Shown here in pieces: positions 52,795-64,000 of a DNA stretch of 64,000 bases. Source of the DNA: a virus; the IMG/VR virus record IMGVR_UViG_3300032236_001191, positions 36,558-100,557 of that record. The stretch is one strand, 5' to 3'. The translations under genes and the position numbers were made by a program. The notes beneath the pieces are model-generated. The model saw only the letters and a list, made by a program, of their open reading frames with translations. It was not told the origin of the DNA and made no database searches. The number at the start of each line of letters is the position of its first letter. The first letter of the stretch is position 1.

Positions 52795-52815
52795 CAAACG
52801 GCCAACACAAACATT

Positions 52816-59743: not shown

Positions 59744-60036
59744 TAGTTAGCCTCCACACTTTCAAACAATCCCGCATAGCAGATATCAAAACTCTGCTCA
59801 CGAGCTTGTTCCAGTTCACGTGGTTTATCGAACTCTTCATCAAACCATACGATTGATATAGGGTTACGTCTAGCACGCTTAGGGGATATAGCAAACAAGG
59901 CTTGACCAAGACCATCGATAACTCCGGTATGGTAAGCCCTGCTGTGTTGATCAGTGAGCTCGTTAAGGTTGAGTTCCTCTTCGAGCATCATTGTTTCTAT
60001 CTTGTCAGCCAATTGACGGCGCTTTCGCTTTCGCAT
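59743..60036 (-). CDS. Hypothetical protein
   Basis: AAGGA RBS before ATG 60036. Confidence 0.55.
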   Translation of the reverse strand: MRKRKRRQLADKIETMMLEEELNLNELTDQHSRAYHTGVIDGLGQALFAISPKRARRNPISIVWFDEEFDKPRELEQAREQSFDICYAGLFESVEAN

Positions 60037-60397
60037 GCCGTACTTCCTTTCTTGTTGAACCAACGGGTTGTACCACGCTGATTGGGCTGGTTGTAAGGTC
60101 AGACTCTACAATATACGTACGATGACCTCGCATCTTAGGTGTTGTACCACCTTGGATACTATGTGCATCATCACGTAGGATTGCGTCATCTAGACATTGT
60201 TGCTTTACATTGCAATTAGCACAGACCTTGAGAGCTGCTCGCTCTTTAGCTCTGCGATGCGTTCTATTACTATCCTCTGCGGTGTAATAGAAATCATTTA
60301 CGTCTAGACCATTGCAGTTTGCTTGGTCTTGCCACGCACCTAATGCTGCCATATCCCATACCACTGGTAGTGGGACATAGTCGCTTGGCATATCCAT
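60005..60397 (-). CDS. whiB: Divergent WhiB family protein
   Basis: WQ.QA.C.....FY...A.KVC.NC.V...CL..A.......SIQGG.T...R; GGAGG RBS. Confidence 0.8.
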   Translation of the reverse strand: MDMPSDYVPLPVVWDMAALGAWQDQANCNGLDVNDFYYTAEDSNRTHRRAKERAALKVCANCNVKQQCLDDAILRDDAHSIQGGTTPKMRGHRTYIVESDLTTSPISVVQPVGSTRKEVRHAKAKAPSIG

Positions 60398-60558
60398 TGT
60401 GACCTCCGTAATGCGGCGCCGATTGTTTGTGTTGGTTGGCACCAGCGTGCCTATACAGACTTTGACATCTGTATAGGCGAGTTGATTTATATGCCGCTAA
60501 CTAAGCGGCCTTACGAGGGAGGTTTTCGTTCAGGAGAACTCCCGCCATCCGTGTAAGA

Positions 60559-61058: not shown

Positions 61059-61208
61059 TTAGTTTGTTTCCTCTACACGGTCGTGCAGAGTGGTGATGCC
61101 ATCGTTCCATAGCATCAATGCTTCCTTGCGAGTACAGCCGTGAAACAACTGTGCCTCTAGTATGAATAACAACTTCTCAGTTGTATCTGATTTGATTTTA
61201 ATCTTCAT
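61059..61208 (-). CDS. Small hypothetical protein (49 aa)
   Basis: Translated by hand; fills the gap. Confidence 0.4.
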   Translation of the reverse strand: MKIKIKSDTTEKLLFILEAQLFHGCTRKEALMLWNDGITTLHDRVEETN

Positions 61209-61440
61209 GCGTATGCCAATCTATGAGTAGATGGGTTGTACCCCATTTTTTATATGGCTTATCAATGATGGAGTATAACTTCCACCACCTATACCCAGCC
61301 TTGGGCATAGTCTCTTGGTTTTCATACCTAACCTCATACTTCAATGCTTTGTGCAAAGGGTATGATGATAGATGATTACACCAATTAGCAAACCACCTGA
61401 GTGGCAAGATATTGGTCTTGTGTTCTGGTCTAGTACGCAT
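61198..61440 (-). CDS. Hypothetical protein
   Basis: ORF track; AGGA RBS. Confidence 0.55.
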   Translation of the reverse strand: MRTRPEHKTNILPLRWFANWCNHLSSYPLHKALKYEVRYENQETMPKAGYRWWKLYSIIDKPYKKWGTTHLLIDWHTHED

Positions 61441-61451
61441 ATAGGTTTATC

Positions 61452-61859
61452 CTAAAGCATATCTAGTATTTGTTTAGTCAATGTAATCTCTGCATCAGCA
61501 GAGACTCGAAGAGTAAGAAGCAATCTCTCCCTAGAATTGTAGTCACGCTCAGATGAATCCCATTGACGGTATCCATAAGTATATGTTTCTTCTTGTTCGA
61601 TTAACTTAGGGGGTTCAGGAATCGTTACTTCTTTTGGAAATACAATAGACAATGATTGTTTATGGTATCTATCAGTCTCAACGCTGCAACCAACGCCTGA
61701 TTCAAGTAACTTAGCAACTTCGATAAGATACTTTTTGCACTCTTGTTGGTACTCTTCAATGCGTTGTTCTTCTTTTCTTTTAGCATCTGCTTTATCAGCA
61801 AGATACTTCGCTTGCTTTTCTTCAAGTTCTTTAATGAAGTCGAGCCTATTTAAGCGCAT
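61452..61859 (-). CDS. Hypothetical protein
   Basis: AGGAG RBS. Confidence 0.65.
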   Translation of the reverse strand: MRLNRLDFIKELEEKQAKYLADKADAKRKEEQRIEEYQQECKKYLIEVAKLLESGVGCSVETDRYHKQSLSIVFPKEVTIPEPPKLIEQEETYTYGYRQWDSSERDYNSRERLLLTLRVSADAEITLTKQILDML

Positions 61860-61896
61860 TGTGTTCTCCTATTCTGTGTAGGGCTGTCATAGACAG

Positions 61897-62035
61897 CAAT
61901 AGACACATAGATGCGGACCGACATTGCCAATGGCGTCCCCTCCTTAGCCGTTAGGCGCAAGGGGTTCACCGAGGACATTCTCTGAGGCTATGTTTATGGC
62001 TACCTATGCCCAGTGCATCTATGTGTCTATCATTG
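61897..62035 (-). ncRNA. Structured ncRNA candidate B (about 140 nt)
   Basis: Perfect 16-bp closing stem (61899-61914 / 62015-62030) around a GC-rich interior that can pair. Confidence 0.55.
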
Positions 62036-62043
62036 TGTATGAA

Positions 62044-62074
62044 TAAGCAGTTTAGCCTTGTCATGCTTAGGACA
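62044..62074 (-). ncRNA. H-type pseudoknot, copy 1
   Basis: UGUC-CUAAGCAU-GACA-AGGCUAAAC-UGCUUA; covaries with copy 2. Confidence 0.6.
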
Positions 62075-62126
62075 GGAGTTCTTTTACCTCAGGAAGAACT
62101 ATAGAAACCAACCAGCATTACCTGTA

Positions 62127-62558
62127 TTAACGGATATACTGAGCCCAACCAGATGTTGTGTTGATCTTGAACTCAGTGTCAATAGAACCTTCAACCAAGG
62201 CAATAGCATTACGAACTTGTTCGTAATCACTATTTTCACGCCCTACCTTATGAGAAGGTTGGCAAAGACCCTCAGGACGCTTACCAACTGCAGCCTCAAA
62301 GTCTTCCGTCTTAAAGTAGAAAGCAATACGAACGCCCTTGTTGTATCCAGTAGATACATCAAAGTCATTAGACTTAAGCATATTCTTCTTAGCCCAAGCT
62401 GATGCTTTCTTTTCCCACGCTTCTCGTCGTGCATCTAGAGTTGCGCTGTCCTTTTCCCAAGCAGCAACCTCATCGTCCATACGCTTGAGGGTTGCTTTCA
62501 ACTTGGCGAGAAGGTCTTTCTTGGCCCAGGTGGTTGCGATTACCTTTGTACTAGCCAT
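62127..62558 (-). CDS. Hypothetical protein
   Basis: GGGAG RBS before ATG 62558. Confidence 0.65.
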   Translation of the reverse strand: MASTKVIATTWAKKDLLAKLKATLKRMDDEVAAWEKDSATLDARREAWEKKASAWAKKNMLKSNDFDVSTGYNKGVRIAFYFKTEDFEAAVGKRPEGLCQPSHKVGRENSDYEQVRNAIALVEGSIDTEFKINTTSGWAQYIR

Positions 62559-62617
62559 TTGTTTCTCCCGTCTGTTATTACATCCTATACTCCGGCTGAG
62601 TTTAGGAATTCTAGTGT

Positions 62618-62911
62618 GCATAAAGAAACAGAGGACACACGCATACTACTAATCGGATAGAAGGTAGAGTTTTATCCATAGCCCATTTGCGTAACGAAAA
62701 AACCAAAATTAAATAGATGTTGCAACAACTATCTAATCCTTCGTACCTACTGTGAGAGGAATATATGCGCTCCCTGAGTCCCTCAACCCCACAGTCCGTA
62801 ACTATTTCAATTTTCATCCCCCTCTGCATAGACCTATATCCTCACCTATACATACTCAGACTCAATTAACTATGATTAGCCTGTATGCGTGTGCCTTCTG
62901 CTTCTTTATGC
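62618..62911 (-). ncRNA. Structured ncRNA candidate C (about 295 nt)
   Basis: 29-bp closing stem (26 Watson-Crick, 2 G-U, 1 mismatch on the - strand) enclosing several hairpins. Confidence 0.6.
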
Positions 62912-62919
62912 TTTGCCTA

Positions 62920-63012
62920 TTACTTACGGCGTAACCAAGCAACTATGATCATAGTTAGTGCAAAACTAACTGTCATTAGTTGGAAGGTACCTTCTGAGAA
63001 CTCAATGTACAT
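62920..63012 (-). CDS. 30-aa membrane peptide
   Basis: GGAGG RBS; MYIEFSEGTFQLMTVSFALTMIIVAWLRRK. Confidence 0.55.
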   Translation of the reverse strand: MYIEFSEGTFQLMTVSFALTMIIVAWLRRK

Positions 63013-63739: not shown

Positions 63740-64000
63740 TACCTTTCTGTTAACTCTCAGAATAGAGAGTAGTAGGGACACGGGCACGCACCATGCCCCT
63801 ACTACCGCCTACTCTGTCAAAATTTTTAAAAAATCGGGGGGACAAAGGCTACTCAGTGATAGTACCTATAGTAAGAACAGTAGAAGAGATACGATAGAAG
63901 ATAGAGCCATCCTTGTCGATACAGATAGCACGCAAGGGCTCACCTATCTTACATACATAGGAGAGGAAAGATATAGAGTCATTATCACCTCGTAGTGGCT

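Follow-up and report, generated by a model that had tools for sequence, protein, structure and literature searches.

A predicted RNA structure of no known family, conserved ahead of an early gene in two actinobacterial phages

At positions 62618-62911 of a 64-kb stretch of viral DNA (the window), we describe an element that, judging from the comparison of two phage genomes, is a real, conserved, and strand-specific RNA structure. It belongs to no known family, and two examples of it are known. The window makes up the final 64 kb of an IMG/VR record that has 100,557 bp and is rated complete (GC 44%). The element lies within a block of small genes that are transcribed leftward (~58 kb to 64 kb), 8 nt past the stop codon of a 30-aa open reading frame (ORF) and 59 nt ahead of the start of a 143-aa gene (Table 1). 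Given this tight position in the operon, it is better called an intercistronic or leader RNA module than a free-standing RNA gene.

Almost none of the phages that infect freshwater actinobacteria are in culture, and their early genes have yet to be characterised. The protein from the 143-aa gene has about 86 related clusters in a large protein collection (maximum identity 68%, with P0002 the closest). Our comparisons indicate that the slot ahead of this gene in the early operon holds long RNA structures that are kept by compensatory evolution, in at least two versions that are unrelated to each other.

Table 1. Features of the element, its neighbors, and related early regions. Coordinates without a locus name are positions in the window.
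Feature	Coordinates	Strand	Remarks
WhiB-family regulator gene	60005-60442	-	Early block
Second long-stem element	61887-62042	-	Downstream of the 143-aa gene; 28-nt arms, 100 nt apart; z -5.2
Nearly invariant stretch, ~75 nt	62044-62122	-	Directly after the 143-aa gene
143-aa early gene	62127-62558	-	Downstream of the RNA element; function unassigned
Spacer, P1 to start codon, 59 nt	62559-62617	-	Small hairpin and Shine-Dalgarno GGGAG
P1 3' arm	62618-62646	-	Pyrimidine-rich (CCUCUGUUUCU), contains CCUCUGU; P1b 62634-62646, P1a 62618-62632; C at 62633 is the partner of A at 62896
P2 3' strand	62648-62654	-	GAUUAGU; 7-bp P2 helix
P6 hairpin	62668-62704	-	From the minimum-energy fold; least certain helix
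P5 hairpin	62708-62737	-	Near-palindrome; G/C-rich hairpin at the same place in L020
P4 arm	62744-62800	-	ACUGUGGG/CUCACAGU and a 3-bp outer helix; base sequence conserved, distal pairs covary
P3 hairpin	62825-62852	-	8-bp stem; in L020, 8-bp hairpin of other sequence at the same position
P2 5' strand	62874-62880	-	GCUAAUC; clamp extension past a 2-nt AG bulge
P1 5' arm	62883-62911	-	Purine-rich; P1a 62897-62911, P1b 62883-62895; A at 62896 is the mismatch
30-aa membrane ORF (MYIE...RRK)	62920-63012	-	RBS GGAGG; upstream of the RNA element
Repeated stem family	63740-63816; L032:3184-3303; L032:4158-4356; L006:1867-1973; L006:2455-2541; L008:311-398; L010:942-1096
~350-nt leader	L005:1073-1435; L004:3650-4003; L006:3652-4003; L007:540-894; L024:1135-1503; L026:1160-1503

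The inverted repeat and its predicted fold

An earlier note on this DNA, made from the letters alone, had interpreted the region as a large multi-branched non-coding RNA of no known class on the - strand, and this interpretation is supported. The 29-nt inverted repeat that was said to close the element is exactly where it had been placed. Its arms lie 236 nt apart and are 90% complementary on DNA, and it is the longest inverted repeat in the 64-kb window. By an analytic estimate (at least 26 of 29 matches, arms at most 600 nt apart, 64 kb, GC 44%), about 2e-5 such repeats would be expected by chance. As RNA of the - strand, which is also the sense strand for the two flanking genes, the arms would form a helix (P1) with 26 Watson-Crick pairs out of 29, two G-U pairs, and one A·C mismatch.

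The whole element has a predicted folding energy of -103.5 kcal/mol (z -6.35). The inner 236 nt on their own have no unusual stability (- strand, z -0.36; + strand, z -0.34), so it is the closing duplex, and hardly the inner helices, that gives the signal from folding this single sequence. In our model, P1 and its extension P2 clamp a four- to five-way junction of hairpins P3-P6 (Table 1).

Four of the inner pairings had been proposed in the earlier note. CUAAUC/GAUUAG (P2) and ACUGUGGG/CUCACAGU (P4) are both present in the minimum-energy fold, and both have compensatory changes in the orthologue that is described below. The pairing of UAGAU.GUUG with CAACAUCUA (P5) is in the fold as well, but the orthologue has a different hairpin at that place. 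ACGAAGGA and UUUUUCGU can pair, but this helix is absent from the minimum-energy fold and has only a partial match in the orthologue.

We rejected the idea that the element is a protein-coding gene. No ORF is common to the window and the orthologue, whose short ORFs are unrelated, and the insertions and deletions between the two elements (2, 8, 1, 12, and 1 nt) are not all multiples of three. The 72-aa ORF at 62611-62829 has no match in Pfam or PHROG and no counterpart in the orthologue. The internal ORFs had been dismissed as spurious and the region as non-coding, and we agree on both counts.

Conservation in a second phage

Homologues of the 143-aa gene are found at 13 loci in IMG/VR, and just one of these, L020, has an orthologue of the element (L020:1129-1413; L032 is the same contig). 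This locus is on IMG/VR contig 3300021519_000006, which is 99,938 bp long. The element of L020 is in the same slot, after a 30-aa MYIE...RRK ORF (whose stop codon is 5 nt before P1) and before the homologue of the 143-aa gene. Because an orthologue with an identical context is present in a second phage, an assembly artefact is ruled out. L020 has arms of 27 nt that are separated by 231 nt and show 89% complementarity.

We compared the two elements by hand, helix by helix; a structure-aware aligner did no better than MAFFT. Across P1, P2, and P4 (43 pairs), 27 pairs are unchanged, three have single changes that are compatible with G-U pairing, 13 have double compensatory changes (two of them in P2), and none are broken. 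This covariation comes from two sequences, which is too few for statistics of the R-scape type, and with two sequences we regard only P1, P2, and P4 as established helices. The duplex of the element would have 29 bp in the window, extended by 7 bp, and 26 bp in L020, extended by 6-11 bp, and all of these pairs are compatible with RNA of the sense strand. Sequence is conserved between the phages in the inner 19 bp of the clamp and at the junction into P2. The P1 arms cannot be aligned in their outer halves, yet these are fully paired in each phage. Both the A·C mismatch in the clamp and one of the G-U pairs in P1 are kept at the same place in the two phages.

Several observations bear on the strand. 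Counted over both sequences, P1, P2, and P4 contain about nine G-U pairs, each of which would be a C·A mismatch on the opposite strand. The sense folds are more stable than the antisense folds by 26-29 kcal/mol in both phages (-103.5 versus -74.8 kcal/mol in the window and -114.5 versus -88.6 kcal/mol in L020). The 13 compensatory changes without a broken pair, the G-U pairs that form on the sense strand only, and the greater stability of the sense folds all bear out the assignment of the RNA to the - strand. We conclude that selection acts on the pairing as RNA of the sense strand and that the architecture of the interior is conserved.

As to the interior, independent minimum-energy folds of the window and L020 elements have P3, P4, P5, and P6 in the same order. 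We also compared the base-pairing probabilities of the two interiors, which is a sequence-blind comparison, with 150 dinucleotide shuffles each way. The profiles were closer to each other than expected, with z -2.35 (2 of 150 shuffles were as close) in one direction and z -3.18 (0 of 150) in the other. The L020 interior alone has a fold z of -2.55. For the claim that the RNA is multi-branched, then, the covariation in P2 and P4, the order of the hairpins, and the matching profiles stand in its favor, but the window's interior is not thermodynamically special.

The class of the RNA had been described as not known, and searches gave the same answer. With the covariance models of Rfam 15, which cover riboswitches, T-boxes, introns, ribozymes, 6S, Y RNA, GOLLD/ROOL, and others, there was no match at the gathering score anywhere in the window and no match overlapping 62618-62911 at E values of up to 10. 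Comparison with GenBank phages by megablast, blastn, and tblastn gave no match to the element. We found no second copy in its own genome, so the element is single-copy there, and BLAST against five related viral records gave chance matches only. Scans for the arm pattern yielded one chance 21-mer each in the genome collection and the metagenome collection (the metagenome scan used a pattern specific to the window's arms), and, among viral contigs, only L032 (the contig of L020) and chance matches. A literature search found no description of the element.

We also considered and rejected three kinds of repeat-bounded elements. The element has terminal inverted repeats like those of a MITE, but it is single-copy and has no target-site duplication (its flanks are GGCAAA and ACACTA). 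An inverton was rejected because the interior is collinear and in the same orientation in the window and in L020, which are two separate assemblies; the phage has no Resolvase or Phage_integrase domain, although a recombinase could come from the host. The msr-msd RNA of a retron is closed by a1/a2 inverted repeats and lies adjacent to a reverse transcriptase gene. P1 resembles a closing repeat of the a1/a2 type, but the genome has no match to RVT_1.

Genome context and other structured RNAs

The genes in the record include a DNA polymerase, a ribonucleotide reductase, an enzyme similar to queuine tRNA-ribosyltransferase, and a CobS-like ATPase. To our knowledge, WhiB proteins are confined to Actinobacteria and their phages, so the WhiB gene of the early block (Table 1) supports an actinobacterial host. 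The product of the 143-aa gene has no family match in Pfam or PHROG. Its AlphaFold model has a pLDDT of 86, and fold searches with this confident model were uninformative: the matches had Foldseek E above 0.3 or VIA Z of at most 5.7 and were of the coiled-coil type only.

The motif CCAACACAAAC occurs eight times in the window, as compared to 1.2 times expected (at 52802, 54550, 55633, 57442, 60425, and other positions). The copies are mainly in the early region and on the - strand, with some directly upstream of a gene start, such as that of the WhiB gene. The motif also precedes genes in the relatives. In addition, the contigs of L005, L007, and L009 and the window's record all end 0.9-2.9 kb upstream of the 143-aa gene, and the L020 contig continues through this region. 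The shared ends could reflect a physical end of the genome in some phages, or a recurrent break in assembly.

At nine of the loci (L004-L007, L010, L011, L024, L026, and L027), the same gene is preceded by a different non-coding leader of about 350 nt. It includes a terminator and two hairpins, one of 22-28 bp whose base is conserved and one that covaries and has the invariant loop ACUUCGUGGG. Among the 50 predicted pairs of this leader, 21 show compensatory changes. The 3' arm of the 22-28-bp hairpin can alternatively form a local hairpin, GGAUUGU/ACAAUCC, which covaries too. The leader has no match in Rfam, and an nhmmer profile built from it showed no homology to the element; only the tail CCAACACAAACA was matched, in L020. 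Another three loci (L008, L009, and L028) have a homologue of the 143-aa gene without any leader. The slot thus tends to hold a structured RNA, but the gene can do without one.

Other structures were seen nearby. The roughly 75 nt directly after the 143-aa gene (Table 1) are nearly invariant in 11 loci, among which the proteins are 34-68% identical. This stretch contains a hairpin with a CCUGAGGUAA loop and a second hairpin, in which L020 has two compensatory changes and whose pairing is better on the opposite strand. It is followed by a second long-stem element (Table 1). L020 lacks this second element along with the next two genes (61198-61859), and this joint absence places the second element at a mosaic boundary. 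In the window phage and in L032, ORFs that encode membrane peptides of 30-35 aa with basic C-termini are found just upstream of long-stem RNA elements.

A family of repeated stems of about 22 nt, all in one orientation, precedes early genes in the relatives and in the window (Table 1). Its 5' arm is UAGUNAGUGGAAGRUACAUAGG, its 3' arm is CCUAUGUAUCUCUCACUCUCUA, and the insert between them varies from 20 to 160 nt. The 3' arm is followed by UCU-GAGAGU and then by a ribosome binding site (RBS), and its outer part pairs either with the 5' arm or with the downstream GAGAGU. These stems also contain an A·C mismatch. The element at 62618-62911 shares one 9-mer with one member of the family, and profiles of the family's arms did not detect it; kinship between the two, as judged by sequence, is a lead only. 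Overall, the early region is unusually rich in conserved RNA structures.

Possible roles and comparison with known systems

Between the flanking genes, we found no terminator-like site on the - strand, so we expect one transcript to span the element and both genes. Upstream of the element there is just one promoter-like match, which falls within a coding region and is not kept in L020. We tentatively propose that, in this actinobacterial phage of roughly 100 kb, a polycistronic early transcript carries the element as a structure of the sense strand and that the host's RNase III cuts it at P1. The element would be transcribed as part of the operon, and the rod formed by P1 and P2 (about 37 bp) would exceed the RNase III minimum of roughly 20 bp, which would make it a substrate of that enzyme. 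The cut would part the upstream cistron from the downstream one, would release a branched domain of roughly 240-290 nt, and would create a new 5' end for the message of the 143-aa gene. Among the readings that we considered, processing by RNase III is probably the best account of P1, although we give it somewhat less than an even chance of being correct.

RNase III requires a duplex of roughly 20 bp, and it cuts the early mRNAs of T7 and the precursors of rRNA at such stems, including stems with internal mismatches. In both phages, the element's duplex on the transcribed strand is continuous over about 20 bp or more, and other duplexes of 22-28 bp are found at intercistronic sites of the same operon and of the relatives. 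We found no RNase III gene in the phage, and, as far as we know, the specificity of actinobacterial RNase III is poorly defined; both points count against processing. So do two further findings: L008, L009, and L028 have the 143-aa gene without any leader, and the window's interior is no more stable than shuffled sequences. Also, a plain hairpin is enough for RNase III, so processing leaves the conserved 236-nt interior unexplained. This keeps two other explanations live, namely an RNA that acts in trans and a translational switch. If the clamp is indeed an RNase III site, then the T7 style of mRNA processing would extend to actinophages.

In the first of these explanations, the branched interior would be the product, a stable non-coding RNA, and P1 would be a processing or protective stem only, much as rRNA and RNAs of the Y-RNA type have closing stems. 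We consider this unlikely but worth keeping in mind, and we judge in the same way the forms that it might take, such as a host-takeover or anti-defence RNA or an RNA partner of the 143-aa protein. The covariation of the interior helices P2 and P4, the conservation of the overall interior profile, and the location among early genes are all consistent with it. Furthermore, most of the relatives carry some long structured RNA in the slot, which suggests that the RNA itself matters. On the other hand, no promoter or terminator of its own was found, the interior sequence is poorly conserved with many insertions and deletions, the z of the window's interior is near zero (-0.36), and the model of the 143-aa protein has no RNA-binding fold. 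If the interior is a functional RNA, then it would represent a new large RNA class. A fuller version, that the element is the first of a new large class of phage RNAs, which is excised at the clamp and acts in trans in host takeover, possibly with the 143-aa protein, and which is replaced in relatives by the different ~350-nt RNA, seems to us less probable again. We give about as little weight to a switch that acts in cis on translation of the 143-aa gene. The 3' arm would pair either with the 5' arm, leaving the RBS free, or with the Shine-Dalgarno sequence, hiding it, so that formation of P1 would set expression, perhaps in a way that is coupled to translation of the 30-aa ORF; this too is rather improbable. 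AACAGACGGGAG in the 59-nt spacer can pair with the 3' arm of P1 once the 5' arm is absent, and the predicted probability that the window's Shine-Dalgarno sequence is unpaired is 0.75-1.0 with P1 and 0.0-0.15 without the 5' arm. The 3' arm of L020 has a perfect 10-nt alternative partner just downstream, and the stop codon adjoins the stem in both phages (5-8 nt before P1). But the RBS of L020 is predicted to be equally accessible with or without the 5' arm, the predictions for sequestration of the Shine-Dalgarno sequence differ among related stems, we see no ligand or trigger, and a 29-bp helix is too stable to be reversible without a helicase or a ribosome.

Two further explanations are much less probable than those. 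The repeat might act at the DNA level: it could be a mobile insertion like a MITE, an invertible promoter segment, a cruciform, an origin, or a boundary of recombination. A segment of about 240 bp between terminal inverted repeats of 29 bp would suit such an element, as would the promoter-like hexamers inside it on the + strand and the difference in gene content between the window phage and L020 beside the neighboring long-stem element. These points are outweighed by the single copy without a target-site duplication, by arm patterns that had only chance matches in three collections, by the lack of a serine or tyrosine recombinase in the phage, and by the shared orientation of the interior in both phages. 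Also, the outer halves of the arms have fully diverged and are still complementary, and the nine or so G-U pairs would be C·A mismatches in a DNA hairpin of the other strand. We therefore view a DNA-level role as largely refuted and very unlikely. Lastly, the 30-aa hydrophobic peptide could be the toxin of a module like a type I toxin-antitoxin system, with an antisense RNA that overlaps the structured 3' region and is transcribed convergently from a promoter-like site on the + strand (62847-62876). In line with this, both phages conserve the small membrane peptide, with its basic C-terminus, along with the element, another long-stem element of L032 likewise follows a membrane ORF (35 aa; L032:4015-4120), and a promoter-like site is present on the + strand. 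But the covariation and the G-U pattern indicate a structure of the sense strand, which a simple antisense target does not need, and the promoter match is weak (9 of 12 positions; seven such matches were found, versus 11.3 expected from shuffled sequences). Both the toxin and the convergent antisense RNA thus strike us as the least probable of the ideas that we considered.

The element can be compared with several known systems. GOLLD, ROOL, HEARO, raiA, OLE, 6S, Y RNA/YrlA, RNase P, and tmRNA are similar in being around 300 nt and multi-branched. In several of the large RNAs in Rfam (GOLLD, ROOL, and others), the 5' and 3' ends are paired, and some are carried by phages. Unlike these, the element matches no covariance model, even at E values of up to 10. 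In phage lambda, an RNase III-sensitive stem in the N leader/nutL region affects access to the RBS, and the element is similarly a long structured leader before an early phage gene; it differs from nutL in having no nut-like boxA/boxB, and in its sequence and host group.

For processing by RNase III, our tentative choice, the parallels are the stems in the early mRNAs of T7 and in rRNA precursors. All of these are duplexes of over 20 bp, interrupted by a conserved internal mismatch, between cistrons of a polycistronic transcript. The stem of the element is formed by sequences that flank a large folded domain, which is also the case in rRNA precursors. The sites in T7 are simple local hairpins, whereas the stem of the element encloses a conserved 236-nt branched domain that is neither rRNA nor tRNA. 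The element has no sequence similarity to the stems of T7 or of rRNA precursors, and its cleavage is putative.

Among actinophages, Cluster K mycobacteriophages have the ESAS, with arms of 17 bp, spacers of mostly 4-13 bp, and many copies per genome, which sit directly before the start-associated sequence (PMC3203893). The ESAS are like the element in that their inverted repeats are imperfect, lie upstream of gene starts, and keep to one orientation. The element differs in being single-copy and in having 29-bp arms that are 236 nt apart. The repeated family of ~22-nt stems in the relatives resembles the ESAS, which are its closest published analogue (PMC3203893).
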